A DNA stretch of 64,000 nt, taken from Christensenellaceae bacterium. Its GTDB lineage: Bacteria; Bacillota; Clostridia; Christensenellales; CAG-138. Made by a program: the position numbers and the translations under genes. Below are positions 2,706 to 33,999 of this stretch, one piece after another. Position 1 is the stretch's first letter. Every line of letters starts with the position of its first letter. Under the pieces are notes generated by a model. The model saw only the letters and a program-made list of their open reading frames with translations, made no database searches and was not told the DNA's origin. Location: positions 790,207 to 854,206 of the forward strand of contig OY764017.1 in NCBI GenBank assembly GCA_963667795.1. Direction: 5' to 3'.

Positions 2706-3956
2706 CTAGAGCAAATCCAACATTGCCTTCGCCGAATCGTAGAGCTCCCCTTCGCTCTCCAGCTGTATGACCATTTCAAAATCACTCTTCGCCTGGGCAT
2801 AATCTTTTTGATCTGCCGCACAGACGCCACGGTTAAAATAGCTATTGGAAAGCAAAGACTCGACATTACGATCGATTGCAACGGTAAAGTCTGCAATCGC
2901 CTGCTCCATATTGCCGGTTACCATATTGCAAACGCCACGGTAATAATACACGTCGTCCATTGTAACGCCAAGGTCGACGGCACTGTTCAGCAGCTCCATC
3001 GCTTCGCTGTAATCACCAAGATTGATCTGTGACAGCCCCATATAATAATATAGCGTCTCATACGAAAAATTTTCCGATCCGATAGACACCGCCTGCTCTC
3101 CATAGGTCACAACGCTTTCATGATCCTGTTTGAGATAACTTGCAAGTGCACATTGCGCATAACACGCACTCGGGTCGGCATACCCTGCATCCAAAGCGCT
3201 CAGATAGTCTGCAATCGACGCGTCGTAATCCCCGGCTATCATATAAACGGATGCGCGCTGCATGTGGATTGATCCATCCGGGTCACCGGCTTCCAGAATG
3301 GCGTCGTATTGGCCGATAGCGGCGTCATATTCGCCAAGGTTGAGATAAACGCCCGCCAATGTCAGGCGCGTATCAATGTCGTCCGGATACGCTTGCACAT
3401 ATGTTTCAAGCGATTGGGCGGACTTTTCAATGTCTCCTTGCGCATCGTATATCTGCGCCTGAATCAGCAGCTGCTCCGCTTCATAAGCACCGCCTGTGAT
3501 ATGGGTAAAACTGTCCAACGCTTCGTCATACCGCTCCGTCAGCGTCTCCAGGCAACCACGCTTGAGCCAAAGCTCGTTCGCAACATCCTCGCCTTCTTCG
3601 TCCAGCAGTGAAATGCAGGCACATATACATTCCAGGGCTTCCTCATATTGCGCGCGTCCAATCAGGATAGAAGCATTTTGATAATACTGTTCAAGCGTCT
3701 TCGGATTGCTGAAAAACTGTGCAATCACTTCGCCCGCACGCGCAAATGCATCTTTGTTCACATATGCTGTCGTTTCATCCAGTGTACTTTCGGAAGCAGA
3801 CGCATTCTCCGTACGAAGTTTGATCCGTACCGCGTTTGCCAAAAAACCAGAAGATACCATAGCAATCGCGAGCAATGCAGCAATCAAGCGCATCCACCAC
3901 GTCCTTGCCCAACCGTTCCGTTTGTCTATACTATTTGTTTTTACGCTTTTTTCCAT
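2706..3956 (-). CDS. Membrane-anchored tetratricopeptide-repeat protein (about 10 TPRs)
   Basis: N-terminal hydrophobic helix WWMRLIAALLAIAMVSSGFLA, then repeated TPR consensus (e.g. YYYRGVCNMVTGNMEQAIADFTVAI, SYFNRGVCAADQKDYAQAKSDFEMVI). Start taken as ATG 3956. Confidence 0.85.
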   Translation of the reverse strand: MEKSVKTNSIDKRNGWARTWWMRLIAALLAIAMVSSGFLANAVRIKLRTENASASESTLDETTAYVNKDAFARAGEVIAQFFSNPKTLEQYYQNASILIGRAQYEEALECICACISLLDEEGEDVANELWLKRGCLETLTERYDEALDSFTHITGGAYEAEQLLIQAQIYDAQGDIEKSAQSLETYVQAYPDDIDTRLTLAGVYLNLGEYDAAIGQYDAILEAGDPDGSIHMQRASVYMIAGDYDASIADYLSALDAGYADPSACYAQCALASYLKQDHESVVTYGEQAVSIGSENFSYETLYYYMGLSQINLGDYSEAMELLNSAVDLGVTMDDVYYYRGVCNMVTGNMEQAIADFTVAIDRNVESLLSNSYFNRGVCAADQKDYAQAKSDFEMVIQLESEGELYDSAKAMLDLL

Positions 3957-3963
3957 TGATAAA

Positions 3964-3993
3964 ACTATAGCACGCATATAAAGAATTGTGCAA
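3964..3993 (-). promoter_or_regulatory. sigmaA-type promoter for the TPR gene (probable leaderless mRNA)
   Basis: TTGCAC (3988-3993)-N18-TATAGT (3964-3969) with TGn extension. The ATG is 7 nt downstream and has no SD. Confidence 0.6.
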
Positions 3994-4005
3994 CGTCCCT
4001 CTTGT

Positions 4006-4036
4006 AAAATAACCGGCTTGTTACCAAACAAGCCAG
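4006..4036 (-). terminator. Rho-independent terminator after the giant gene
   Basis: CTGGCTTGTT-TGGT-AACAAGCCGG (10-bp stem with one G-U) followed by TTATTTT. Confidence 0.7.
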
Positions 4037-4084
4037 TATTTTTTAGATCGTTTGTAAACGCCTAAACATTGCCAGCGGCATTGC

Positions 4085-7000
4085 TTATGCCGCGCTGCTT
4101 TGCACACCGTGGTAATTGTAGTGAGCACCACACATTGCACTATCGCTTTTTGCAACATCATTGCCCGTTTGCAGAATGGATTCATCCATCCCACGCGAAA
4201 CGAATTCCGCAGGATCGGCAAACAGCTCTGCAAGTGCGTTTATAATTTCTACAAATTCCAATTCACCGCTGCGTAGCGCCTCGGCTGCCGCAAGCAATGC
4301 ATCGGCATCCTCCATTTCTGCATTGAGCCGCTCAGTTACCGCCGGATAGAGAGCTTCCCAGCGCTCTGTAAAGCTATCCGCAACGGCTTTCATCTGTTCA
4401 ACCGTCGTCGAGTCATAGACCGTCTTCAGATCTTCTATCATTGCGGCCCAATCTCCGTCGTCGATGTCACCGCGCATCGCAGCAATCCAGAACAACGAAG
4501 CTGTCATCATCTGCATATTCGGGAACATCTCAACGATTGCTTCTGTGAATTCCGCCGACACTTCGCTTAACCCGTCGATAAATGCCATTTCGATCGAATA
4601 CAATCCGGCTTCCTGTACACCGTTTGCAATTTCACTCAGTACCGCCATATTGCCGATTTCAGCAATATAGATGCTGCGGATCTGAAGTTCACCGCTCGCC
4701 GTCACGCTAAAGAGAATGTACAGCATGAGCGGCAACGCCTGGTCGCTATCTCCCGAAAGCATCATGCCGACGAGGAATGTTGCAGCAGTAGTCCGGACAC
4801 TGTAACTCACGGCATCCGTATACAGGTGGTTGATGACATAGATCCCGCCGTAATGCATCACCAACGTGAGACCATTCGACACCCAAACCTTCAGCGGAGC
4901 ATCCGGTTGACCAATGCTGCCGAATGCATCGATCGTTAGGTTAGATGCGTGGATATTGCCGCCACCCAAATTTCCGCCAACATCAAGCACGATGTTGCCG
5001 CCGGTCAGATTGATCGAATCTGCGTGGCCGATATACGTGATATTGATATTTGCGCCCGATGCGGTCAGCTCCGGTGTGTTCATGATAACCGGCGCAGATT
5101 CCATGCCGATGTCACCATTTGCCGTTAATTTCACAAACGGGCTCTGAACATATCCGCCTGAAAGTTGTTGGATCGAGCCGCCTGCCGAGAGGAGCACTCC
5201 CGTGCCATAAGCAGTAATCGTACCAATCTTTAACGCGCCAATATTCCTGATGTAAATTTCATCGGCAAAAGCACTCAGTATACCGACGCTAACAACGGCC
5301 TCGCTGCCATGAATGCTGCCGTCGATCGCCTGAAGCGTGGCTTCGTCCGCCACGATCATGATCCCGCCCTCTGGCGCCGTATCCAAAATGTCGCCATATG
5401 CCGTGATACGAACTGTTCCAGCCGTCATACCGCCGATGTTCATCGTCTGTGAACTCGCCAGTGCAATCGTTCCGCTTTCGCCTGCCTGGACCGTTATAAT
5501 TCCGTTAACCGCGATTGTAATCTGCTTTAGCAGCGTGCCAACGTCACCGCCAGCCGTAATCGTCAAATCGCCGCCAGTGCGAATCGTCGTTCTTTCTGCA
5601 CCGGTTTCTGCATCCGCGGCATAATCCGCACCAAAGTTATCCAATGTAACGCTCGGCTGCGCCGCAAGTTTTGCTGCTAGGTCCAATTCGGCGGCGTCGA
5701 GTTCAGCCTGCGCTGCATCGATTTCATCCTGCGCTTCCGAAAGCGACGGCAGCAACGCCAGTTGTTCATCAATCGTCGTCAGCGCAGCCTGTTTTTCATC
5801 ACGTGCTTGCTGTGCATCCAGGTATTCGTTCAGCGCTGCAATCACTTCGGAGTCCGCATCCGATCCGGCGACGAGCCGTACGTCTACCCATGCTTGATAC
5901 GCAATGTCCATCGAGAGTTGTGCCGCGGCAAGTGCATTTGCGGCAATGTCACGTTCGTCCATCAGCGTGGAGATCGTGCCATAGGTTGTGTTTGCGTCGC
6001 TCAAGCGTTTTTCTGCATGGTCGACTTCAGTCTGCGCATCGTTTGTTGTTTCATGCGCTTTTAGCGTATCTTTCGCCGTGTCGAGTGCAGTTTGTGCGGC
6101 CGTTTCCGCGTCGATAACCTCCGAATATGTAGCGTAGCCGTTTTCTGACAACAGCGTTGCAAGCGCAGTTTCTGCTTCGTTCTTTGTTTGCTCCGCGTTT
6201 TCAAGTGCCGCTTCGGCTTCGGCTTTTGTCATGCCGGACGCATCAATCACCGTCTGCGCAGCAAGTTTCTCAGCTTCAGTCGCAGTCGGCGATGCAAGCA
6301 CCGCGTAAGCATCCAGAACGGCCTGCGCCGCGTCGGCGTCCAGTTGTGCCTGCTGGATTGTGTCATTGTGCTCTCTTGCGGGCACGGACGTCTGACGCAC
6401 TTGCCAATAATCATCCAATGCGTTCAACGCGTCCTTAGCCGCTTGCAGCGTCTTTTGTGCCTGAGTCAAAGCAACAAGATTGTCGGCGGACGGATCTGCT
6501 TCATAGGCCGCCTGTGCCGTGGTCAGCGTCTGTTGTGCCTTGAGGAGCGCATCCGCAATATCGAGCGCTTCGTAGTCCAGCGTTGTGTCTTCATATTTTT
6601 CAATCAAGCTGCTTGCTTCGCTGTATGCAAGATTTGCCTGATCCAATTTATCCTGTGCTGCCAGCTTATCCGCCGCGGACGCTGTTCCATCCGCCAGCAC
6701 TTCACTGGCTTCGTTGATCGCAGTTTGCACGCTCAGCAGATAGCGTGTCGCTTCCAGCGTGCCCTGCGTACGTCGCAGCGCCAGCGCCGCCGCTTCCTGT
6801 TCCGCCGCCGTTGACGCCGGATCGGCCATCACTGTGTCGTAACTTGCCTGCGCTTCGTCAAAGGCGATTGCCGCATCATTTACGGAAATCTGAAGGCTCA
6901 GCAGCGCTTTCTGTCTCGCAAGCCGTGCTTCGGCAACCGCTAACAGCGCCTGCTTCTCAGCCAGCTGCTCCGCAGCAAGCAATGCGTTTGCAACATCGAT

Positions 7001-10000
7001 CAGCGCCTGTGTAGCGTCAACCTGTGCCTCGGCCTCGGCCAGCTTCTCGCTTGCCGCGTCAAAAGTTGCACGTGCAGTCGCCGCATTTTGCTGTGCGCTT
7101 AACAGCAATGTCTGTGCGGCCGCAATCTGTTCCGCGGTCGCGGAAGGATCAGCCACCAACAAGTCGTAAGCCGCCTGTACTGTCGCAAGTTCGCCCTGTG
7201 CAATGAGCAATGCGCTGTTAGCCAGGTCATATGCAGTCTGAGCCGTATCTCTGCCAATAATCTGCTCTGCAATCTCAATTGCCTTTTTCGCCAGATATTG
7301 TGTCAACACGTCGACGCGCGCCTGCGCCGCGTCCACATCATTATGAAGTGCGTCGACCTCCAGCTGTGTTTCAACAACCTGCTGAATGATCTGCCCAAGT
7401 TCGCTTTCCGTATTCGCGTCGTAGATACTTCCCTCCACGCACAGTACAACGTTGCCCGATGCATAGAGTTTTTCGAGGTAGACATCGCCGGATAATTCGT
7501 CGACATAAACGTTTCCACCGGACAGTGCGAGTGTGCCCGCACCGGCCCGATTGGCATCGATGATGAACGGTACGTCCTTTGTGCCGATATCGCCCGCTGC
7601 GTCAATCGATATACCGTAATTCGCGTATACATAACCTGTCAACACCATATCGTTGCTGCTTACGAAGTTGACATACCCTGTAGCAACCAGTGCAACTTCG
7701 TTCGTTCCACTGCTCAGGTTCAAGGTTAAATTGCCGAATGCATTGATACGTGCTGCGCCCGCGCTGGTCGTTGTGACCGTTCCACCGGAGCTCAGCAGGA
7801 TTGGCTCGTTATAGGATGCGCCGATTGTTCCGCCTGTCGCCAACAGATTCACGTCTGTTCCTGCAACGATATTCAGATCGTCATCCAGTCGCTGCTGTTC
7901 GGTGCGATTGTCAACGATGGAACCCGGTGCACTCAGCGAAACGTTCCCATCCGCGTTGACCGATCCGAGACCCAAATCGCCGGACTGTTCTTCGATGTAT
8001 ACGCTGCCGTTTTGCGCGTTTGCATTCAGCAAAGTGCTCGCTCCCGTATAGGTAACGCGGAGCCAGTCGTAACGCACCGCAACGTCGAGCGCCCAGCCGG
8101 TTACGGGATTACCCTCTTCATCCAGCATGGGTGAACCGTCGGGATTGAGCAGCTCAATCTGCACAAGCACATAGACCGGAACGTCGTCCGCAACGGAACC
8201 TGAACCAAATGCTACGATCACGGGAGGCGCAGACGTGCCCGAACCCGCCGGATCAAAGCGTACGCCGAAGTCGGTGTTGAACGCGGTCTTGTCGCGCGAC
8301 GTTTGATCAGCCGTATATAGCTCTTCATCCACATTCACGAGTCGAATCGGATAGTTGGTCTGCTGATTAATATGGATCGGCAGCGTCTGAGTTCCAACGT
8401 CGTTATATGCATTCAGCGTGATATCCCAGCCGGTGACCAGATTGTCGCTGGAGCTTGCAAGAATGCTTCCTGCAAGCGCATTGATGTTGACATTTCCACG
8501 AGCCGAATAGATTTCACCGACCGTGAAGTTGCCAAGTTGCTGCTCAATCGTAATATCTCCATGGTTTGTGAGATTCGCCACACCCGTGCTGCGTCCGATG
8601 CTCAGGTTAAACGCACGCACAGGCGTATTCGTATAAGTATCTTCCGGCGTTGTGCTCGTCTCCAGCGCACGCTGGAAGAGGTCTGCAATATCGTCCGCAG
8701 TTAAAAGTTCGCTAAGCATGTCGCCAAGCGCACTCAGCAAGTCTTCGCCCAGCAGCGCCGACAGTACCGCAAGCGCGTCTTCGTCACCAACGACGTATTG
8801 CAGTACGCTCACGCCATCAATTTCAACCAGTTCCTGTTCGTTCAGCGCATCCAGAATTGCACTTAACAATTCTGCATCCGTCGTGATAGTCGGCGTCTCG
8901 CCGTCCATCGCATCGAACAGTGTTTCACCCAGTGTCTCACCAAACAATGCAGCAAGCGTTTCCGCATCCGCTTCGCCGGTGGCCGCCGCATGCACCGCCG
9001 TCCAAAGCGCTACAGCGTCGATCTCGCCGAAATACGCCCTGTCCACTGTACGTCCAGCAATCCACTGTGCAAGTTCTTGTGGCGTTTGTGCCGCAAGGAG
9101 AACTTCAAAGAATTGTTCATCGCTGTATTGCAGGTATACGCCGTTCCAATACACGCGGGTTTCATCGGTGCCATCCCAGCCGCCAAAGATCGCGTAAAAC
9201 GGATTCGTGGCTTCAGGCAGATCGACTGCGCCGATGTAGAAACCGGAAACCTCGTCGATGTGTACAACGATTTCAGCCGGAATATCAATTAAAAGACGAT
9301 GATCGGCGGCGCCAATGTCGCCGTACTTCGCGCTCATTGTAAGCGATGCTTCTGCAGGCGTGTCGTCCTTGGAGAAGCTGATCAACGGATTATCCAGCGT
9401 GCCGTCCAGAAGCCCGATGTTTTGATAAGCCATCAGCGAAACGTTGCTCTTCTCTGCGTTAATGGTGTTGAAAAGAATGCTCTCATCCGTGCTCATCAAC
9501 GAGAGATTGCTGTTGTGCGTTTCGGCAAGTGCAATACGCGCCGTCTTGAATACGGAAGAACTCCATGTGCTGTTGGCCAGATAGAGCCCGCCGATACTCA
9601 GGCCGCCTGTCTTGCTGTAAAGCGTTACGTCGCTGTTTGTAAGCTCGCTTGCGCCAATTTCAATGTCGCCGTAGATATTTGCTATGTTTTCGCTGTCGGA
9701 CACTCCCCAGGAATCGGACGTAAATCCGCCGTTTGTGCTGGTCAGTTCAACAGTGCTGCCATTTGTGATTTCCGCTTCGGCGATTGCAATGCTGCCGTAT
9801 ACGACGATGGAAACATAGCTGTTGTCGACGATCCACTTATCCGATGCGAATCCGCCGTTGGAGCTTGTCAATTGAATCGTGCTTGCGTTGGTAGCGCTGA
9901 AATCGTCGATCGAAATATCATCATAAACATCCGCCGTCACATCGCTGTCTTCAACCGTCCAGGTTGCGGAAGTCAGCCCGCCGTTGGAACTGGTCAGCGT

Positions 10001-13000
10001 AACCGTACTGCCGTTTGTGATATCGGCTGTGCCGATCGAGATGTCGCCGTATACGTCCGCGGTCACATCGCTGTCGTTCACAGTCCAAGATGTGGACGCC
10101 AGTCCGCCGTTAGAGCTTGTCAGTGAAACCGTACTGCCATTTGCAATGCCGGCCGTTTCAATTGCGATGTCCCCGTAAACATCGGCAGTCACAGTGCTGT
10201 TGTCAACGCTCCAAGTCGTGGATGTTAAGCCACCGCCTGTGCTGTTCATCGTCACAACGCTCTCATCCTGTGCTGTAAACGATCCGATTTCAATGTCGCC
10301 CTCGGCATCCAGATCTGCGCTGCTGAAATACACTTTGTCGGCGTCGGTTGCCGCATCCTGACCGGCATCGTAATGAACGATCAACGTTTGAATCTTAATC
10401 GCTCCCGTAATGGTCGGATCACTGCCGTTTGAATGCGCATCCAGAATCAGATTTCCGGCGATGACTTCGACGCGGTTGCCAAGAATATCGCCATTCTCGG
10501 TTTCAACATGATACGTTGCTCCGTTGATGATGCGCGTGTTTTCCTCAAGCGTCAGGCTGCCTTCCGCCGCCGGTACAAAGAGGTAAATACTGCTCGAAAT
10601 CAATCCGCGGTCGCCTGTGATGTCATAGACCGTGACGAATCCACCAGAGGAAACGTCCAGTAGCTTAGTCGGTTCGCCAACCGTACCTGTCGTTCTGAGG
10701 TAAAAGTCGATATCGCTTCCGGCCTTCATGTTCAGATCCGGTCCGTTACCGTCAATCAGGCTTCCTGCCGTATCGTGCATGGTTATGGTGATGCTGCCCT
10801 GCATCGCCTCTACATAACCGATGTAGTAGATAATGCCGGTCGCTTCGACGAAGTGGAGCGTTAACGTGTCTGCGGATGCAGGCTCTACTGTGCCGTCTGA
10901 ATATACCTTGGTATGATTCGGAAGTTCGATCACAGCGCTGTCACGCAACCACGTCGATTTCTCGTTGTCCCAAACATAGATGCGCTTGACAACAGTCGTT
11001 TCGCCGGAATACGTGACGGTATGCGTTATGGTTTTGATCGTTTCCGTCAGCGTTCCAATCACCGTCACGCCGTCCTCGCCCAGGATGTCCGTTGTGCGCG
11101 TTCCCGTGGTTTGCGTATGCGCAACATTTGAGACCACACTCCAGCTAGAGCCGCTCCAATGATAGTAATGGCCTTCGACGTCCGTTGCGATCGTATCGGT
11201 CAGTCGCTCCAGATAGACCGACTTCACCGGCGTCATTTCGAAAGCGACGCCTGTGTTTTCGACAGCTTTATAGATATAGTAAATCGCGTCGAACGCATCT
11301 CCCGTGATATCGGCCAGCTCAATCGGTGTGCCAGCGTATATTAGCGTTCCGCTGATCAGTGTGAAGGTATTCGCATCATCATCGGTATAAACACCGTTTT
11401 CAATCGGATAAATCCACTGCAGCGCTTCAATTTCGGTCAGGTCTTCAATTTCAAAGAGCATGCCGAGGTGCACGAGGTCATCACCGATTATTTGATAAAC
11501 ATTGCCGTTGATATCGATGTAATAATCGCTGTTGCCCATTCCGTACACAAGACGCAGCGCTTCCACCGCACTGCCGGCAAATTCATATTCGCCGGTCGGA
11601 TCACCGGTTACAGGATCGAGCACCGGTGACGCCTCAAATAATCTACCGAGTGATACCCAACCGTCATAATTGTTCAGCAGCCAGTCTGCCGTGTCCGATC
11701 CGTATATGCACGCCGGTGTCGAGCTTATCTCACCGGTGTAGACCAGTGCATCGAGGGCGTCGTTCAGCTGGTAAATATAACCGGTGCCGTCAGTGTAGGT
11801 TCTATTCGAAGCATCCACGCCATACACAAGGTAAAGCGCGTTGCCTTCCGTGTGTGCCTCCGCCGCAAACGTCTTCACTACACCGTTGTTGTCATACACA
11901 CGGTCGGCATACGACACAATCTGTGAAATAATATCCGAAATCAGATATTCAATTGTAATGTACGTGTCGTCCTCGGCATACCGTTCGCCGGTATAGACAT
12001 ACTGCGTATCCGAAATCTTTTCGAACAATCTGCCGTCCGCGTCTACATAGAGCGTTCTGGTATCTCCATCAATCGAGATAGGCGTGAGTCCATCCGCGTT
12101 CGCTTTGTCAGCAATGTCTTCCGGCGTGTCGACATACGTAAGCGCGTAATAAGCGTCGCCTTCCGCCGGTGTGATCATCTCCAATGCGTAGCGGTTGCCG
12201 TCCGCGTCGACATAGTATCCGTCAAGGTCTTTATCAAACTGGAATCCGGCCGCACCTACGTTTGTAATTTCACCCGTGGCATCCAGAAAAACAATCTTTT
12301 CGCCATTTGTGTAGCCGATGATCATGCCATTTAGCGTGATAAGCGCGTCTGCGGACGTGATGTCCGGCAGATCTGCAGGCGTATTATAGTAAACCAGATT
12401 GTCGCCTTCCAGGCGATACACGCTGCCGTTCTCGTGCGTGTAATACCAATACCCGTCCTCGCCCTGCGTCAGTTCGTAACGGATACGCAGCGCTTCTTCC
12501 GGTGTAATGCTGTCGTCAAACGTGTACGCAATGCCACCGCGCACGTAGTAGTAGCCGGTCGTATGGCTCATCAGCCACTCGATTGCGCTTTCACCCGTGA
12601 TGGTTTGCAGCGTCCCGCCCGCTTCGGTACGTACGATCTGTCCTTCAACAAAGCTATAGAGGTTTCCGTCGGTGTCTTTAAACGTTCCCTCACCAATGAG
12701 CTTGAAGAGTTTCAGTGCGGTTTCTTGCCCAACGGCAATGCCTTTATGTGTGTATCCAATGATGTTTCCATCAATATCCTTCAACACTTGCAGCGCTTTG
12801 TATGCGCTGGTGTCCGCGGCGACAATCGTGACCGGTGTACCGAGGTATACGAGATTCGAACCGTCAAGTTCGTAGACGTGGGAACCGGAATTATAGGCGC
12901 CGTCAACGATCTCGTAACGAATCTTCAATGCTGACGATTCGGTTACGATAGAGGTAAAATATACGCCGTTATAATAATATCCATCGCGTCCATTGATGAG

Positions 13001-16000
13001 CGTCGCACGTACATCGGCACCTGCAATGGTCGGGGTGACGCCCGTCCGTTCGCCCGTATACACAAGACTATCGCTGATCAATTCATAGATGTATCCGTCC
13101 GCGTCGGTGTAGAGGTTCGCGATTGTCGGGTAGAGCAGTGCGAGTGCTTCCACGCCGGTGATCGTAGCGGCAAAGGTTTTGCTCAAGTCTTCCGAATCAT
13201 ACAGGCGGTCAGCATTGTTTTCGACTTCGTCAATCATCGTGGATGCTGTGATATCTGCAATGCCCGTCATCATTCCGCTATATGTATAGGTAACCACCGT
13301 GGTCGTCACTTCATCCTCAGTGATGTAGGCGTAGTGTACGTTGTATATATAACCGCTTACGCTGACGGTCAGGGCTTTTCCTTCGCCGTCCGTCGTCAGT
13401 GTCGTCGTTCCGGATGGAAGCGTTTCTTCGGAATAATCGTTGCTCATACCACTCGGCAGAACAGTGCCGTCGTAAACAAGGTTGCCATCTCCGTCCAGCG
13501 TGTAACGGTTGGCCGTTTCGTCAATCTTAAAGTAGAAGCCGTAGGTTGCGTCGTTTACCGTCGTATACAGCAGGTACGCCGCGTCGCTGCCGCCAAGCTC
13601 GCCTTCCGTCATCAGGTAGACCTTGCCGTTTACCGTGTAACCCACGACCATGCCGTTCAAATCCGTCAACGCTTCGGTTCCCGTAATCGTTATATCGGAT
13701 GGAGCGCCCTGATAGACCAGATCGTTCCCAACAAGCAGATAGACGTTCCCGTTTTCATCCGTATAGTTCGGATTTGCCGTGTCTACGCCATAAACAAGAT
13801 AGAGCGCATCCAATTCTGTCAGGTTGCGGTCAAACACATAAACTTCGCCATTGTCTGCCGTGTATACATAATCCGCATGATCCAGCAGCCATTGTTTCGT
13901 TACCGCGCCGGAGATGTTGGAAACACCGCTTTGCTTGCAAATGATCGCTCCGCTCTCAAAGAAGTAGATGTTCCCCGCCGCATCTTTAAACGCACCGGTG
14001 CCGTTGAGGCTGAACACCTGCAGGGCTTCGTCTTCCGACAATTCAACGCCAAGCGCCGTGCGATAACCTGTAATATTCCCGTCTCCGTCGGTGATCGCAT
14101 CCAGGAAGAATCCGTTCTGAATGATTTCAATCGCACTTTGTCCGGTAATGTCTTCCACACCGGTCTTCATGCCGGTGTACACAAACGAACTGCCTTCTAG
14201 CCGGTAGATATAGCCGTTCTCGTCCGTATAGATAACATTGCCGTCTTCGTCGACCTCAAGCGTGCTGTACTTGGAGGTTTCACCAAGCTCCATCGCGTTC
14301 AGATAATCCGAATGATACTCCGTGCCGTCGAACTTCGCCGCGAAGCACTTACCGTTGATCATGTTGTTTTCGTTGATCATGACCGCAAGGCCGCTTGTGG
14401 TCACATACAGCGTTTCGGTCACGCGATAACCGGAGACAGAGCCAACCATGTTGTTATCAGGGATTGCCGCAACAGCCTTGATCGGAATATTCTTAACAAG
14501 CCCTTGAATGTTCAGAATCGCCTGTGCGTATCCCTGTTCTTCAACGGTTGTTTCCTGAAGTTCCCAAGTAGAGGTCACGTCGTTGTAAACGGAGGTCGTA
14601 TACGTCGCCGTGTACGTCGTCTCGCCAACGGGCGTTCCAAAGGTCAGCGTATAATCCTTGCTGGGTTGCGTACTGCTTGTTCCGTCGCCTTTGTTTTCGT
14701 TGGCCGTGAGCATCAGCGACAGCGGGACAATCGTCGTACAGTTGATATTCAGCGAATACGTATAAAGCGACGTCTTGTTGACCCAGTAATGATTCGTATC
14801 ATCTTCTTTGTATGCAAAGACCGCGAAATAAAATTTGTTGTCACCCTGCGCCGACCAGCTGCTGTAATCCGAACGCGTGTCGGTCTGCAGACTGACCGTC
14901 CAATATCGGCCTTTGAGGGATTCGTATATGCCGTTGAGCGTGCTATTGGAATTCGTGTAGTTGTCAGGCACATAGTACATGCCGTTGATCTTCTTGATAT
15001 TCAATTCGGTGCTGTTGTAATACCACTTGCCAGCATTATAATCGTATTTTATCCCCACCGACGCAAGACCGTTTACATTGAAGATCTTGGACGCGCGTGA
15101 CACGGCTTCGCTAATGACGCTTCCGTTATAGTATTCCTTTTTGAGCTCGTAATAAACCGTACCGCTGCTCATGGTAACGGTGTGCGGTTCGCCGTCGTCG
15201 GTCATCAGATGGTATGTTATCAGGCTGTCACTGCTTGAACCCGACGTGATGGAAATCGCGCCTTCCATTAGGTACGGTGCGAATGTATCGTCGCTGGAAT
15301 CATACGCAATCAGGTAATATGTTCCGTCCGTGTCGACATGCGGATACAGGCCGCTGATATAGTAGTAAGTCAGCGTACCGTAGCTCCACCAATATGAAAG
15401 CGATACGACGTTGTCCTGCGATGTGTAAACCGGAACGCCGTCCACGATTTCCGCCGTCGTCGTGGATAACACAAGATCAATGCTGCCAGCGCTCTGCCGA
15501 ATGTTGTTGACAAGCCAAGTGCCGCTGACTGCAGACAGCAACAATTCGTAGCTGCCGTTGTCTTCAACAGTCAGTTTACCGGTCGTAAGGTCGATCGATA
15601 CGCCAGCTGCGAGCGTGATGTTCGTGACCGTTCCGCTTCCGTCGGTCGTAAATTCAAAGTCGCTGACGGCAAAATCGACGCCGCCTTCGGTGATACGCAT
15701 AACATTGCCAAGCGAATCCGTATACAGGTATGTGTCGTTCGGCAGCAGGAAGCAATAGACGTCCTTCAGCGGGTCATAACTGGTCAGGTAATATTCAAGC
15801 GCGTCCATCCCCGCGATTGTAACATTCTGGGAAAGCGTTGTCAGTGCGTCGGTGACGTACTCCAACGTTCCGGGGACCGGCATGGTCAGCGTATTGGTAT
15901 TCATCAGCTGGTATGCACGGATGCCCTGCGGCAGGTCGATGTCAATATCGCCGGTCGTAGAAACGATCGATTGCATCCGCATATCAATGTTTGCGTCGGT

Positions 16001-19000
16001 CGTTGCGCTTCCGTCTTCCCAGGGCTTCGTTGCCCACTGGGTTGCATTCAGAAGCAGCAGTTCCGCAGCCGTCAGCTGCATGTAGATGCCGCCGCTCGCC
16101 GAAACGTTGACGCAGGATGCACTTCCGCTGATATTGAACAGATATGCGTTAAAGCTCTGGGTTACTACCGTCTCACCAACCATGTAAGAAGCGGCACCGA
16201 TGCTCCCGGCATTTGTGATCGTCAGGCTGCTCGCCCAAACGGGTGCAACGTTGACGGCTGCCGAAATAGACGTGACTTTCTGAACAGCGGTCAATGCGCC
16301 GCCGGTCTCACCCGTCCAGATGATGTTGACGTCGCCCGTGCTGTTGGCGATCATGCCGTTAATTGCAACTGAGCCGTCCTGCTCGTTTGTGATTGTAATC
16401 GTCGGCGTCGTTACCACGCTCTTGTTCAGGTTAATGTTACCGCTCGTGCCATAACTTGACGGCATTGAAATCGGTAGTCCCCAACTATTTCGAATCGTAG
16501 GCCGGATGAAGTTCGTGTTCTGCACCGTAATGCCGAGTAACACGATATCCAACGCCGTGCTGTTCGTGATCGTTACGGACGGAATGTACGACTGATCGTA
16601 CACAAGCAGCGAACTATAAGAAGCCTTGAGGATCGCCGTTCCGGGCAGTGCGTTCGAAATCTGTCGGAAGGTGATGGAATCACCGCTGATCGTCCAAATC
16701 TGGCTTTCATTTTTCAGGCCAACCTGGCGCACGGTGTAATTATTCAGTGTGCCGGAGATATCGATGTAAATGCCACCCGCGGCGTCGCCAAGGTGCAGCT
16801 GCGTTCCTGCGGCAACGGTTGCGCTGCCTTCGGAATCCAAGTCATTGCTGCCGGTCTTACGCTTTACAATGAAGCCGGACGTATTACGGTCGTCGTCCGT
16901 GCGGTCCTCATTATACTTGACCTTTGTAACAGTGACATATGCACCGATGAACACAACGCCGGTGTTGATCGAAGTCGTTGCAGAGATCGTGCCGCCGATA
17001 TCGACCGCGGCAACCGCTTCACCGATTGCATTCAGCCTTGCTGTCGCAACGCCGTAAATGTTGTGCGAATGATATGCCGGTTTCGAAGACGCCGCGATGT
17101 ATGTTTCATCATGTCCGGTGATGCTGACGTAGGTCAGCTTCGTCGCCGACGTGATATTGACAGTCATGTTGGTGTCCGCGTCCACGTCTGCGCCGAGCGC
17201 TTTGCCGTTGGCGTATGTATATGTGTACACGTAGAGTTGGCTGACCAGCGAAGAAACATTCACATAGCGGCCTTCAATCGTCACAGCGTTACTGTCCGAC
17301 CCGGAAATGTTGACTTTACTGCTTAGCGTAACATTCGTCGTTGCCTTGGCAAACGGACGCACACCCAGTCCGCTTGTATTGACATATGCAATGGCAGAGA
17401 GGCTGTCCATCGACGAATCGGCATAAATGCTGACGGTGTTGAACCGGTCTTGCATGCTCACGCCTGCCGATACGTTCACGGTTACGTTCGAGTTCACGGT
17501 TGTCGATATCTCTGCCTTGCCAAGCGCGACGACGCCGCCGGAGGAAATTTTTGCGTAGGTGTAAATATCGTCGTTTTCACCCGCGGACGCTTTGATCAGC
17601 AGATCCCCGAAGTCCGCCGTCAGAACAGAATTCGTTCCAATATTGATCGTTGTTGTACGGTACAGCGAGTTGATTGCTTTCATCAGATCGCCGGAGAAGA
17701 ATCCACCGCCGTCAGCGTAAGTCTTAGCATACATGTCTGCATTGGACTTTGCCAGCACGCTCAGGCTGCCGCCTGCAAACAACCGGGCCGTGACGTTGGC
17801 TAGGTTGGTAACGTCCATGTAGTTTCTTCCACGCGTACAACCCGCGTTGATGCCAAAGCCAATCTGCGTTGCGGTTGCATTGGAAACTGCCGCCGTAAAG
17901 TCTTCACTTATTATGCTTATGCTGCCATCTGCCGTGATGGACGAATTGTCCGTTACGTAAGCACTTGTATAGTAATAGGAATTCGTCGGCAGTTCAGATT
18001 CGGAAACGGCAACCAGCGCAGCGGTCATACCGCGTTCGACGACCGATCTTGCGGAGCCCGAGTTATAGGCGCGGATCGTTACGTTGCCCGCGCACGTGAT
18101 GTCGGCGTCGCCCTTAACGCCCGCGGTAACCGATTGTTTGCTGCTGTTCGTCCCGACATATGTTTCCGCCTTTGTCGACGAATCGATACCCATGCCAACG
18201 CCGCCGGCTTCTTCGCAGAGTGCATATGCCGTGGTGTTGCCGATTGCCGACACAGTAACATCGCCGCTATGTGTTTCAATCTGCGTTGCCGAAATATACG
18301 CCTGCACCGAATCGCCGGTTTCAGCGACTGCATAGAGGCTGCCGACCGTCAGTAAACCGACCGTCAGGCTCTTCTTCGCCTGTGCATTCGCTTCCGTAAT
18401 CGTTTTTGCCTTGACCGTCACCGAATTGGCGGTGATGGAACCAGCGCCGCTGATATAAGCCTTATTGACGCTCGTTGCAATCGCGCTTGCTTGGTTGACG
18501 GTCGCGCCGATCAGTGCAATGCTTAATCCCGCGCCGGACCCGCCGACGCTTGCCGACGCCATGCCGAAATCACCGGTGCGGAAAATTTCGCTTTGTACAT
18601 TTAGTGAGCCGTTGACGATTTCGATCGTTCCTGTCGTGTTCACATAGGCCGACTGATCGATATTGAGTTTGGCTTCAATGACATTGACGGCGACTTCCAG
18701 AGCGCTGACGGAGAACGAATGCGTTCTGCCGATTGCCGTGGATTTTGCATAGCCTTCCGTCAGGATGTTGACGCCGCCCGTCGAGGTGATACTCCCGCTG
18801 CCACAGATATAACTGGAAACCGTCACGTGGTTGGATGCAAAGGCCAGGTTCGACGATGCACTCGCGACCGAAACACCAAGCCCGCCGGCTGCGCCGGTCG
18901 CCGCATATGCAATGGCGTAATATTCCGTATTAACAGTGATGGTGCCCGCAAGGATGCTTGCGCCGGTGCTGTCGATATACGCAGAGAAGTCGCCCTCAGC

Positions 19001-22000
19001 CTTCGCATAGGTCGACAGCAGCGATACGCTGATGACCGAGATGCTGTACTGTGATGTAAGTATATCTGCATTTGCGTAGGAGCGCGCCTGCGTATTGACC
19101 GATACCGATCCACTCACGGCCATGGAAGCGCCACTGATGTATGCATGCGAACTTGCGGTAAAGATTGCCTGCGCAAGGCTGATTGTTCCGTCAAGGAAGG
19201 AGATGGATACGCTCTTCGACGATGCGCCGCTGCTTCCGACCTCGGCAACTGCGCCAGTCTCATCACTGTTGTTCAGTCGTGTATATATATCCAAACTACT
19301 TGCCGAAAGCGTTACGTTTTCGATGTACGCGTTCTGTGAGGCCGTTACTTTTGCATAGCACTCGTTGAGCGCTACTTTTGCAAAATTGACCGAAACCGCA
19401 ACACCACGCACAACTGCATATGCCGTAACCGTTCCGATGGAGCGGACGGCAACTGCGCCAGCGGTAATCGATCCGGTTCCGCTGATATATGCTTTTGCGG
19501 CAGTGTTTGCTTCTGCGTAGCTGATGTTTACGCTGCCACTGTACGCCGCAGCCTGAACGCCTGCCGCCGCGGGCGACAGATCAGACGTTGCGTCGGACGT
19601 AAAACTATTGATGACATTGATGCTGCCCGCCGTAATTGAACCGTTGCTGACGATGATTGCCTCAAACGTACCCGAAGCATATGCAAATCCAGTCATAATT
19701 CCTACGGCCGCATATGCAAACGTTATATTATCCACCTTTGCTTGTGCCGTCGATCTGCTGTAGCTGTAGACATTGATTGCGCCGTTCACGGTCAAATTCG
19801 ATGCTTTTACTTTTGCGCGTCCCGTTGCGCTGGCAATCGCCGTTGTCACATTGGCCGAAACCGACGTTGCCGCAGCGGAAGCCGCAAAGATGTATGCCTG
19901 CGCCATCGTAGAGAACCTGCCGCTGATGGTATCGGTCAGGCGATCGGTAATCTGGAGCAGGAAGCTCGAATAGGTGTTCAGCGTATAATTCTGTTTGGAC
20001 GTTACGTTCAGCGCACCGGTCAATGTTATAGCGGAGCTTGCATTCAATTCTGCAGTCTGCGTGCTGACCAGCGTTGCGCTGGATACCGAAATGTTGACAG
20101 AGAGCGCCGCAACGCTGACGTTTGCAATGATTGCATATGCCCGCGTATTGCCTTCCGCGTAAATATTGAGGTTTCCGGCGTTGAGCGTGCCGGACGTGCC
20201 GATGACTTTTGCATTGTTTTCAGAGGCGTTGATCGCGATAGCAAAGTTCAGCGCAACCGCGATTGCGCCCGCCGTTCCGGTAACGACCGTAACGATCGCC
20301 TGCGAATTATACGGGGCCGTCGACGTTCCGGCGTTTACATTCAGCGTGCTTGCCGTGATGGTTGCACCGGTAAGGTCGACCAGCGCGACATTCTTCGATT
20401 TGATCTGTGCAAGCGCGACCGTTGCGCCAACCGCAACACCGCCCGCGATCAGACCGGTGGTGGTCACCGTTGTATCGCCCGTCAGCACGGCGGTTACCGT
20501 AATGGTGCCCGCTTCCAGATTTGCGCCGCTGATCGCCGCATAGCCGGTCGCGCGGTTGAAGCCGAGCGCAACGATGCCGTTGACGGCGACAATGCCGCCG
20601 CGCACGCCAAAGCCATACACGGTCGTTACGCCCGTAACGTCGCTTGTAACGTTGATGCTACCTGCGGTGATCTTCCCTTTAATTGCGGCGGACGAGCCGT
20701 CGACAGCTGTGCCGACCGGCGTTATGCCGATGTACGTGTAAGAATCCAGCAGGTTGATGACGATTGCCACGGTTGCGCCGACCGCCACGCCGCCGACGGA
20801 CAAGCCGATTGTAAAGGCGATTGCATTGGCTGTGAAGTCCGTTTTCACACCGACCTGCGCAGATGGAGCATCAATCGTAACGCCCTGACCGATAAACGTA
20901 TCGATACGCGTGCGGTTGATGGAGATTGCCATGCCCGCATTGACCGCAACCACACCCGCGCTGATGGCCGAGGCCACCGCAATTGCACAGGTTGAACCGG
21001 TCGTCGTAACATCTATGGCGTGCGTAATATTGGAGAGATTTGCGTCACCGGCGATGGCAGACGTTGCCTTTGCCTGATAATACACGGCAGCGGCGGAAAC
21101 ACCGACGCCGACATAGCCTGCGCCAATTGCCAGCGTACCGGTGAGTACCTGTCCAAAGTTTACGTCCGCATTGACATATACATTCTTTGCCGCGGCAACA
21201 TCGCCCGCAAGACAACTATACACTTCTGTAAACACAGTCAACACGGCAATCGTAACGCCAACGCCCGCAAGGCCGCCGCCGCCGCAAACCGATATGAGCC
21301 GGATCGTGGACGTGTTACTGTCTGAAATCAGATCGGCAACCTGTTCATTGACCTTCTGTGTGTCTTCGTTGATTTCTTCAATTGCTTCGGATTCGGACCC
21401 CGACGCCGCCTTTACGCTGATATCACCGTTCGGTGCGCGCAGCACCGCGTCGCTTTCAACCATTGCGTTAACATTGCTGAACAGCACAGCAACCGTAAGT
21501 CCAACGCCTACGCCTGCGTAAACGCCGACACCAAACGTACCGGAGATCATGTTCGCATTGATATGGTCGTTCGCCAGAACATTGATATCGCCGTTGTTTG
21601 AGGTAAGCTGGGCTCCCGCGCGCACGACCGCAGACGTTGAATCCCGCAAACTGCCGATACGGGACGAGTGCACGACCGAATTGTCGACTGTGCCGTCATA
21701 GGTGTCGTCATTCATTTCGCTGTCGGAACCGTCGTCGCTTTGCCCGTAATCACTGCTGCCCGGGTCGAGGTCTTCAGCCTTTTGGCCGTCACCTGCGAGC
21801 AGGTCGTTCAGGCTGTCGGTCGGCTTGCCGTCCGCCGCATGCGGGTTGGCCTGGCTAAATGCCTCGTCAACCTGGGTCTGCGGGTCCATCGTTTCGGCTT
21901 CAACCATAACCGCCGTCTTCTCGCCGGAGTAGTTTGTTGAAACCATGGAATCGCCTTCCAGATAATAGAACGTTGAAACGCCGTCTTTTACATATTCGTA

Positions 22001-25000
22001 GAGACGCTTTTGGTTATCATCGAGATAGACGTAATAATCTTTATCGTTGTGTGTATAGATTTCCTGAACTTCAGAAGAATAGATTGCATCGTGTGCATCC
22101 TGGCTCATCTTATTGCCGGACACAACAACGCTGAGCGAAACAGCAACGCCTGCCGCGCCTGCACCAAACGCCATAACAATCGAAAGGATGTCGCGATTCG
22201 ATCCGGCGGTTACTGAAATATCACCGTTTGCCGTTAGGATGCTGTCCGCGCCAACGGAAGCTTCTATCGTATTAAAGCTCACGCTTGCCAGAATCGTGAT
22301 CCCAACGCCCGCAGTGCCTCCGCCGATGGTTGCAACAACGGCAAGCAAACCGTACTCGTCACAGGCGACGATGTCAATATCCCCACCTGCGTTCAGCGTA
22401 ACGGCCGATTCCGTATATGCCTTTGTAATGACTTGCGTGATAATGACGTCCAGCGTACCGCCAACGCCCGCCGATCCGCCGACCGCAGCGCCCGCGGCAT
22501 CCGCCGTGACAAATTCTTCGGAATATGCATTGATCGCGATGTTGCCGGAAATCGCGGCAATCTGTGCGTTTGCATGTGCATATGCAAGCGTTTGGTTGTA
22601 GAAATACGTAACAACGGCAATTGCGGTTACACCCGCCGTACCACCGCCGCCAACCGCAAATGCTGCGTTAACAAGCAACGAATCCGTCTTTGCCTGAACG
22701 AGCACGTTGCGTTGTGCATTTGCCGTGCCGCCCAATGCCGCGGTAACAACATTTCTAAAGACCAGAGCGTTTACGCCACCCGCAATGCCAGTTGAACCGG
22801 CCGCGCCGAATGCGATTGCCAACAGGAAGAGTTTATCATTGGAACTTGCCAGCACACGGATGCTTCCACCTGCGTTGATGGTTGCCAGTGCACTTACATC
22901 CGCCGTAACGTTCTTCATGAACACCAGCGTAACCACCGTTGCGCCAATGCCGACCGAACCGCTCGCAGACAGTGAGCCTGCGAGATTAATTATTATGGAA
23001 TCATCGTCTGCCTCAACCACAACGTCGCCGCTGCAGAGCTCTTCGGTTCCGCCGCTTTCGGCGACCGTATAGGTATCCGTACCCGTCGCAGTGATGCTTG
23101 CCGAAGGCTGCACCTGTGCGCGGACGATATTTCTCATGACCAGTGTGTTGATAACGCCATTCACCGCAGCACTGCTCGAAGCTGCTGCTCCGATCGAAAC
23201 CAGCACCAGGTCTTCAGAAGCGGTTGCGCTGATGATCACGCCGCGCCGTCTGGCGGAACGATTCGGCACCATGATGCCGGAGCCTATACCACCGGAAAGA
23301 ATGACCGCGCTCTGTCCTATGATCGTCTCAACAGTGTTCGTATAAACCGCCGTAGAGATCGTTGCGCCTACAGCATTGCTTCCGGATGCTGCCAGACCAC
23401 CGCTGACGATATAAGTATGATTGTCCAGATTGGAAATAACGCCGACCGAGTCATGTGCCGTCAACCGTGCGCTCTGTCCAATTTCTGTTCTAACCGTATC
23501 GAGGCCGACCAGCACCGGAATCGTGCCGGACAGTGCTGTGGAACCAGAAGCGCCTACAGCCAGCGTCAGCATCAGTGTAAAGTTTTCACCGGTTGCCTGC
23601 ACAACAACATTGCCGCCGGTCGACGTAAGCGCCGCACCTTCGCCAATCAACGTTTGTATGGTGCGCTGCAAAACGTTAACGCTGATGGTCGCACCCGCCG
23701 CAGTCTGGCTGGATGCGCTGAGTGACATTCCAATCACCAGCATCCAGGTTTTACCCGTCGCCGTGACCGATACATCGTTCAGACCTGAAAGGACGGCATC
23801 ACTGCCAACCCTAGCGGTCGTATGATTCAAGGCGATCAGCACACCGAGCGTACCGGCAATCGCCGTGCCGCCCGTTGATGCCGAAGCCGCCGCAAGGACA
23901 TTGATGAGTTGATCGTAGGACGCCGCACGCACACTCACAGAACCGCCCGTGCTGACAAGGCTTGCATCGTTTGCAATCTCAGCAAGCGTGACCGTGTTCG
24001 TGACTACGACCGCAATCGTACCGCCAACGGCGCACTTTCCGCCCGCGCCCGCAATAGACAGCGCAATGAGGAGCAGTTCCGCCGAGGATTCTGCAGAAAC
24101 GCTCAGGTCGGTGCCCGCGGTGATCGTTGTATACTGGCCGACAGTGGACGACACATGGTTGTCCATAACGATGACGTCGATAACGCCGCCAACGCCTGAG
24201 CCGGAGGTCGACACGCTTGCGGCAATTGTGATTGCCATATAATCGGAATCGGAAACCGCGCTCTGGGCGTAATTCCCGCCCGCGTTGATTACAACATATT
24301 CGCCGACAACTGCGTTTACATAATCGGAATTTGCAAGCGCAGCAACCGTCAATCCAACGCCCACCTTCGACGAGCTAGCGGAAATGGCTCCGGAAATGAT
24401 GCGCGCGTTGGTGTCCGCCGTCGCCGTCACTTCCGCGTCGCCGGTGACATTGATGGTTGAATGATTGCCAATCGACGCTTCGGTCGTGTTAAAGAAGAAT
24501 ACGCACGCCATCGATCCGGCTACCGATGCGGTACCACCGGAGCCGCCGCTGACCGCGCCCGCAATCGATTCGGCGTAATAATTATTAGAAGAAAGGAAGT
24601 TGAGCAAGTCGATTGCATCGAGCACGGTGTCCGTGCTGACGTTGATCGAAATGGAATATCCGTCTTTGTCACTTGAACCTTTCTTGATATCAATGATACC
24701 CTTGTCCGCATCGGGGCTTGCATTGGTGGAATCCGTCAACAGCAGGCTCATGTCGAACGTTGATTCGTAATCCGAGAAGTCCACGCGCTGTTTGGCCGCG
24801 CGGAGCAGGAAGGACGCCGCATTGATCTGAACGTATTCACCAATTGTGGATTTTACGATGTTACGCGCAAAGACCAGCGCGAACGATGCGCCGAGGCCGA
24901 CTTTCGACCCCTTGGAAATGCTGATTCCACCCGCGCGAACCGCAAGCTTGCTTTGGTCTTGGGACGATAATTTAACCTGTCCGTTTGTGGCGGTCAGTTG

Positions 25001-33811: not shown

Positions 33812-33999
33812 CGGAATACAAAAACCTTTCCTCTGACCGTGCAGAGTTGGAATGGAATAAATCAAGCTATAAGTGGCTTTTTCAAACTCTAACTGTGCTT
33901 TTGTAGACACATAGAATCGCGCTATAACATACGCTCCACACGAGTATACACTATCTAATTGTAAATTTCCAGTGTTTTTCACGATTTTATTACAATGTG

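Follow-up and report, generated by a model that had tools for sequence, protein, structure and literature searches.

Domesticated Mutator-like transposases are known from plants, where FHY3/FAR1 and MUSTANG are intracellular, DNA-binding proteins that work as transcription factors, and to our knowledge all known domesticated transposases still act on nucleic acids inside the cell. In bacteria, the giant surface fibres of Gram-positive species and the FHA/TpsA-like beta-helix proteins form another described group. The solved IS256-type transposase that is most useful for comparison is ISCth4 TnpA (PDB 6xg8, 6xgw, 6xgx), whose catalytic residues are D175, D241, which is spaced 66 from the first, and E348, with a C262/H265 motif, an insertion domain at residues 261-325, and dimerisation and DNA-binding domains that are N-terminal (PMC7780238).

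The window analysed here is a 64,000-nucleotide stretch of contig OY764017.1 (positions 790,207 to 854,206) from a Christensenellaceae bacterium. The last ~200 residues of a giant protein that it encodes, called the tail hereafter, descend from the catalytic domain of an IS256/Mutator transposase. We put the probability at roughly 85% that the tail is a dead, acidified transposase domain of this descent that selection has kept as a non-catalytic structural module of the giant. The exaptation of transposases is a known phenomenon and what is unusual here is the destination, the end of a secreted fibre; the family is small. The tail shares with ISCth4 TnpA an RNase H-like core that carries a four-helix insertion domain, and the homology of the two begins at strand beta-1 and extends over ~215 columns almost to the C-terminus, whereas the N-terminal dimerisation, NDB and HTH domains of TnpA are missing from the tail. 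It differs from IS256 transposases in that its DDE triad is cut to one Asp, its CxxH is replaced and it is acidic where they are basic, and unlike the mobile IS256 elements it is a single syntenic copy, without inverted repeats, that is fused to a secreted giant. With FHY3/FAR1 and MUSTANG it has in common an immobilised Mutator/IS256-superfamily origin, the loss of inverted repeats and purifying selection, but it lacks the DNA-binding part, its charge is reversed, and it terminates a fibre exported by a bacterium. The giant itself resembles the Gram-positive fibres and the FHA/TpsA-like proteins in its signal peptide, its thousands of rung or repeat residues and its acidic composition, but in place of an LPXTG signal, a C-terminal helix, a TPS domain or a wall-binding domain it has the transposase-derived C-terminus. 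Limited literature searches on bacterial IS256 domestication, on transposase-derived domains in secreted fibres and on giants in this order returned nothing relevant.

The giant gene lies in a single open frame on the reverse strand (4085..33982) of 9,965 codons with zero internal stops, as the earlier note on this DNA, made from the letters alone, had said of it. The features of the gene and of its 3' flank are the following.

4085..33811, reverse strand: giant gene; probable start GTG 33811 after aggaaagg, stop 4085-4087, giving a protein of 9,908 aa as read from the sequence
33710..33811, reverse strand: predicted Sec-type signal peptide MTFSTSKKQIKLALRALLIVLIVLAVFGGMQTRAFA, then EDDD, read from the sequence
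4012..4037: terminator-like hairpin with a T-run, 3' of the giant gene and between it and the next gene

The signal peptide is the sole terminal hydrophobic segment of the giant, and one further hydrophobic stretch lies inside the protein, at residue ~1691. Pfam recognised a single InlB-type B-repeat and the C-terminal PF00872, and nothing else, in what is otherwise thousands of residues of beta-helix rungs and repeats with an acidic composition. No LPXTG sorting signal was found in the protein, the nearest thing being an internal LPGTA at residue 5779, nor was a C-terminal membrane helix or hydrophobic segment, a TPS domain or a recognised wall-binding domain. From the signal peptide and the lack of a C-terminal anchor the giant is predicted to be extracellular.

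The resemblance of the tail to IS256/Mutator transposases, which the earlier note had proposed, is borne out by several tests that are independent of one another. The last 301 aa matched PF00872 (Transposase_mut) with an E-value of 4.1e-11 and 42.8 bits, compared to a gathering cut-off of 21, over profile positions 182-318 of 379 (window 4304-4726), and this cut-off was exceeded by all five members of the first family alignment, that is, the window tail and four others. The NCBIfam IS256 model matched the tail at E=7e-9 with a score of 35, far under its equivalog cut-off of 150 bits, and by phmmer the tail matched the solved ISCth4 transposase 6xg8 at E=3e-4. With a custom HMM built from about two dozen genuine transposases of ~400 aa, the window tail alone scored 58 bits (E=4e-20). 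When a 20-sequence tail alignment was compared by hhalign with a profile of 11 full transposases, the probability was 99.7% and the E-value 3e-26 over 215 columns, and tail columns 37-255 were paired with transposase columns 165-380 of 408. The homology of the tail begins at column 165 of 408, with beta-helix rungs upstream of it, and the N-terminal dimerisation, DNA-binding and HTH domains are absent.

The structure prediction agrees with the profiles. AlphaFold, run with a 43-sequence alignment, gave a tail model with a pLDDT of 77 and a pTM of 0.72 in which the order is beta1-beta2-beta3-alpha1-beta4-alpha2-beta5 followed by a helical bundle; this alignment included real transposases, which makes the model dependent on the sequence homology, and when only five family sequences were used the model was poor (pLDDT 51). 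The best five matches of the 43-sequence model in the PDB by Foldseek were all chains of the ISCth4 transposase (E=3.5e-8 to 1e-6, 188-213 aligned columns), and the remaining RNase H-like proteins appeared only near E=0.01. Both the PF00872 and the Foldseek comparison were significant, and the outcome that the earlier note had named as fatal to its reading, the absence of such matches, was not found. Reading from the last beta-helix rung towards the stop codon, the parts of the tail are as follows.

4793..4825, reverse strand: LYTDAVSYSVR, variable linker joining the last beta-helix rung to the domain (alignments, AlphaFold)
4502..4789, reverse strand: RNase H-like core, beta1-beta2-beta3-alpha1-beta4-alpha2-beta5 (AlphaFold, Foldseek, hhalign)
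4769..4771, reverse strand: Val, in TFLVG, at the position of the first catalytic Asp, D175 of ISCth4 (hhalign, HMM)
4574..4576, reverse strand: Asp, in FIDGL, at the position of the second catalytic Asp, D241 of ISCth4 (phmmer, hhalign)
4490..4501, reverse strand: ASLF, replacing CxxH, C262/H265 of ISCth4 (hhalign)
4313..4498, reverse strand: four-helix insertion domain, the most conserved and best-modelled part (AlphaFold)
4196..4306, reverse strand: C-terminal helices, equivalent to the transposase helix with TTNxIE (hhalign, AlphaFold, colinear divergent members)
4241..4243, reverse strand: Ile, in EIINAL, at the position of the catalytic Glu, E348 of ISCth4 (hhalign)
4088..4192, reverse strand: clade-specific C-terminal extension GMDESILQT...C...C...AA, common to the closest relatives only and modelled with low confidence

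The peptides that the earlier note had listed are all where it had placed them, including the two Asp codons at 4814-4816 and 4574-4576, which are 80 residues apart, and its observations that ASLF stands at CxxH, that the third acid is lost (Ile), that the N-terminal DNA-binding region is missing and that there are no inverted repeats were also confirmed. What did not stand is its assignment of the first catalytic Asp to LYTDAVSYSVR. Transposase strand beta-1 (vfl-D-aihvkvr) aligns on TFLVGMML in three independent assignments, namely, the window sequence alone against the HMM, the family against the transposase profiles, and the AlphaFold strand assignment. The Asp at 4814-4816 is 15 residues upstream of the homologous position, it is outside every alignment, and the segment in which it lies has a pLDDT of <50. 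Nor is this Asp conserved, since the linker reads LYTSEVERQIR or LYTGEVERQIR in the closest relatives (73-75% identity), and the other members of the family have lost it by deletion. LYTDAVSYSVR is a chance resemblance in a variable linker that is outside the homologous block. The insertion of ~13 aa with which the earlier note had explained the spacing of its two Asp is also unnecessary because the homologous first position is the Val of TFLVG, and this Val is 65 residues before the second Asp, which is already near the 66 of ISCth4. Both the first-Asp alignment and the insertion were rejected on the family alignment, hhalign, the HMM and the AlphaFold strands.

None of the three catalytic positions is conserved across the tail family. 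The second position, which is D in the window tail, is E, A or G among its relatives, and a Glu at the third position is kept in tails P0025 and P0017. Positions conserved in at least 80% of the family are Gly, Pro and hydrophobic core residues only, the invariant residues being W129, F168, W172 and Y176 (tail numbering); the Trp that follows ASLF and the F, W and Y of FTERWEALYP are invariant across the family, and no conserved polar cluster was found in the family alignment. With Val at the first Asp, Ile at the Glu and ASLF at CxxH, the tail is, as read from these residues, incapable of transposition catalysis. The domain has also shifted from basic to strongly acidic, as the earlier note had claimed: the pI of the window tail is 4.05 and its net charge is -30, and the pI values of the family tails are 4.05 to 5.3, compared to 8.7-9.5 for the equivalent part of 11 real transposases. 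Catalysis and DNA binding by the tail are both very unlikely.

Filamentous beta-helix proteins often carry C-terminal nuclease toxins with the immunity gene next to them, as in polymorphic toxin systems, and the predicted RNase H-like nuclease fold of the tail together with the conserved gene downstream of the giant would fit a polymorphic-toxin or CDI-like fibre in which the tail is the nuclease and the downstream gene confers immunity. We consider this very improbable because only one of the three catalytic residues is left and that one is variable, because a pI of 4 with a net charge of -30 is unsuited to nucleic acid binding, and because one and the same domain is conserved in all members and is not swapped between strains. 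Moreover, the neighbour is no small cytoplasmic immunity protein but the 423-aa membrane-tethered TPR protein described below.

Other large proteins with such a C-terminus, for which the earlier note had suggested a search, were found in congeners, in a second family of the order and in metagenomes. A profile search, exhaustive over 1.84 billion representative proteins, gave 279 matches at E<1e-3 and 15 clusters at E<1e-10; the best matches are for the most part the C-terminal ends of large proteins, or fragments that are limited by their contigs (866, 2,042, 2,775, 1,528, 687 and 1,109 aa), and ordinary transposases appeared only from about E=1e-8 downward. Within the same genus the tail was found in 7 of 24 species genomes. 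It ends open frames of 9,876, 9,814, 10,001, 6,458 and 2,781 aa in five congeners and lies in a contig-limited frame of 971 aa in one, and a further copy of the tail, which has diverged more, lies in a frame of 7,550 aa in G017, one of the five. The tail is also present, at 73% identity, in the Christensenellaceae MAG OY762278.1. Among 400 genomes from 174 genera of the order, it was found in only one besides the window's genome (G209, from a different family, in a 6,372-aa open frame), the threshold of E<=1e-12 used in this search having also admitted one genuine transposase (G214). The 300 residues of beta-helix just upstream of the tail occur in the tail-bearing genomes and in no others, and since the two are present in an identical set of genomes the giant is an accessory gene and is never separated from its tail; no giant without a tail was found in these searches. 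Even in the most divergent members the tail directly adjoins the conserved last rung (AFGSIG...PL.V.VPG...S.YG.I...N).

The dN/dS of the tail, computed among orthologues as the earlier note had advised, was 0.20-0.30 in four species pairs (0.21, 0.30, 0.30 and 0.30), with 95% bootstrap upper limits of at most 0.47, whereas that of the upstream beta-helix was 0.15-0.26, so that the tail evolves somewhat faster. In several species the giant gene includes the tail as a fixed part, on which purifying selection acts. Being immobile, syntenic, in an intact frame and under purifying selection, it has the features by which a domesticated transposase is usually recognised. These values are hard to reconcile with the tail being a read-through IS256 scar that decays neutrally, for which it could be said that IS256-family elements are present in the genome, in two copies, and that congener G021 has a frameshift inside its tail. 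The tails of the other six tail-bearing congeners have no stops or frameshifts, and an intact tail is present in >10 independent sequences. In addition, no terminal inverted repeats were found around the tail between 3900 and 5200, where there is only one 14-nt pair of 86% complementarity, and no pairwise similarity was detected between the tail and the genome's own IS256 transposase by BLASTP or by single-sequence hhalign. An assembly artefact is no better supported, as the junction is covered by Logan contigs from three runs of the source sample, which span 4000-5600 with zero differences. A chimera at ~4830 is also contradicted by the presence of the junction in independent assemblies and in the open frames of other species. 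We regard a scar or an artefact as next to impossible. The long-term in-frame exaptation that the earlier note had put forward, as distinct from a fresh insertion, a scar or a chimera, is supported by these data, each of the refutations that it had named having been tested and having failed.

When 18 tails and the catalytic domains of 23 transposases were placed in one tree, a single branch with an SH-aLRT of 100 divided them into their two groups. Colinearity with transposases can be seen by eye in the divergent tails (P0019, P0025, P0020, P0078 and that of G209); it starts at the W..R.L...Y linker that precedes beta-1 and extends as far as the native C-terminus, where, for example, ...FFPEYR corresponds to ...FFADRLPY. 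Recent capture from a resident IS was ruled out by the absence of pairwise similarity to the resident copies. We infer that a single old fusion event is the simplest history. In this one ancient event the 3' ~60% of an IS256-type gene would have taken the place of the giant gene's 3' end, in frame, and the loss of the triad and the replacement of basic residues would have followed the fusion.

Next to the giant gene lies a gene that bears on what the tail may do at the end of the fibre.

2706..3977, reverse strand: predicted membrane-tethered TPR protein, 423 aa from ATG 3977, which co-occurs with the giant

In this protein basic residues are followed by an N-terminal membrane helix and by about 10 acidic TPRs, and because of the basic residues that precede the helix its N-terminus is expected to be inside and the TPRs outside the cell. 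The protein is 91% identical in the closest relative. In each of the seven giant-bearing congeners its gene lies downstream of the giant gene at a distance of 150-300 nt, it is at a contig end in congener G016, where no giant or tail was detected, and it is absent from the other 15 congeners. Among the 400 genomes of the order a homologue (E<1e-30) was found only in G209 and the window's genome, which are also the two with the tail, and in G209 the TPR gene and the tail are unlinked, on different contigs. This co-occurrence strongly suggests that the TPR protein and the giant protein work together; it concerns the whole giant gene and is not assignable to the tail, as every giant that was found has a tail. 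A point against the link is the terminator-like hairpin at 4012..4037, which lies between the two genes.

We propose that the tail would serve as a non-catalytic structural module at the fibre end, either as a cap for the last beta-helix rung, or as a docking site, or as both. As a docking site it would bind the TPR array that the membrane-tethered product of the next gene is predicted to expose outside the cytoplasm, and in this way a fibre that itself has neither an LPXTG nor a membrane anchor would be held or assembled. That the tail docks specifically to the TPR array is a guess, which we offer tentatively. It is likewise only a possible reading, and one on which we would not rely, that a fibre of ~10,000 residues carries at its tip, in the dead and acidified IS256 core, the ligand of a co-inherited, membrane-tethered TPR receptor; if this is true, the two would make up a system of two components, not described before, by which anchor-less Clostridia would anchor or assemble their giant surface fibres.

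The tail could instead be an intramolecular folding cap or chaperone of the beta-helix that has no partner, and that nucleates or terminates the folding of the last rungs after export and is maybe cleaved later. The invariable place of the tail directly after the conserved last rung, the confinement of conservation to core residues, and the giant of G209, which keeps its tail without an adjacent TPR gene, all speak for such a cap, whereas the strict co-occurrence with the TPR protein would be left unexplained by it and no cleavage motif was recognised. This too is a doubtful proposition when taken singly. The folding cap and docking are about equally likely, and they are compatible with each other.

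If the structural role of the tail is confirmed, it would show that the RNase H-like fold of a transposase can be put to extracellular use in a role that is solely one of structure or binding, and the tail together with the co-distributed TPR protein would give a handle on how anchor-less giants are held or assembled in poorly studied Clostridia. A smaller matter is one of annotation. One member of the family, of 2,775 aa, is labelled 'transposase' in the public record, and this label is misleading.

The phyletic distribution of the gene for the membrane-tethered TPR protein is the same as that of the giant gene and equally narrow.

Window 2706-3977, minus strand: membrane-tethered TPR protein gene.

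The giant gene adjoins the TPR gene in seven congeners, in an eighth the TPR gene is at a contig end, and some 400 further genomes of the order lack it. In G209, a genome from a different family of the order, the TPR gene is unlinked to the giant gene, and downstream of the latter (locus L015, about 2223-2843) a lipoprotein-like CAP/SCP-type protein is encoded in place of the TPR gene. The congener G017 has a second giant open frame of 7,550 aa, whose terminal tail copy is more divergent (E=1.3e-16), but its genome yielded no further close homologue of the TPR protein.

G017:C3:852858-853211, minus strand: second tail copy.

Beyond the tail domain the window protein and its relatives L014, P0007, and P0004 share an extension of about 35 aa.

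Window 4088-4192, minus strand: clade-specific extension, GMDESILQT...C...C...(S/N)AA.

The extension has one Cys in the window and at least two in the three relatives, and all four extensions end in Ala-Ala, as does another tail relative, P0009. When the tail locus of the congener G021, which is a single contig, was examined it was found that the stop of the giant frame falls within the tail (...GVSIAAIGMRRR*) and that the remainder of the tail is read in another frame. This interruption is either a real frameshift or pseudogene, or else a long-read indel error.

G021:C1, about 1030267-1030725: tail locus L012.

Some 130 kb upstream, outside the window, lie two IS256-family transposase genes, of which one has an in-frame TAG, and at the pairwise level both are unrelated to the tail.

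G000:C1:661277-662383: full-length IS256-family transposase gene (L001).
G000:C1:680623-681729: full-length IS256-family transposase gene (L002).

In the 214-aa protein P0006, from a 1.5-kb ENA contig, a SnoaL-like domain at the N-terminus is followed by the half of the tail family that comprises the insertion domain and C-terminal part, from ...FWIAGMR onward. This arrangement is either a genuine secondary fusion or the product of a chimeric contig. Finally, the tail family member P0012 (NCBI MEN6636450.1, 2,775 aa) is publicly recorded as 'MAG: transposase [Clostridiaceae bacterium]' because of its terminal Pfam hit, a name that misleads, since the protein is a giant beta-helix protein.
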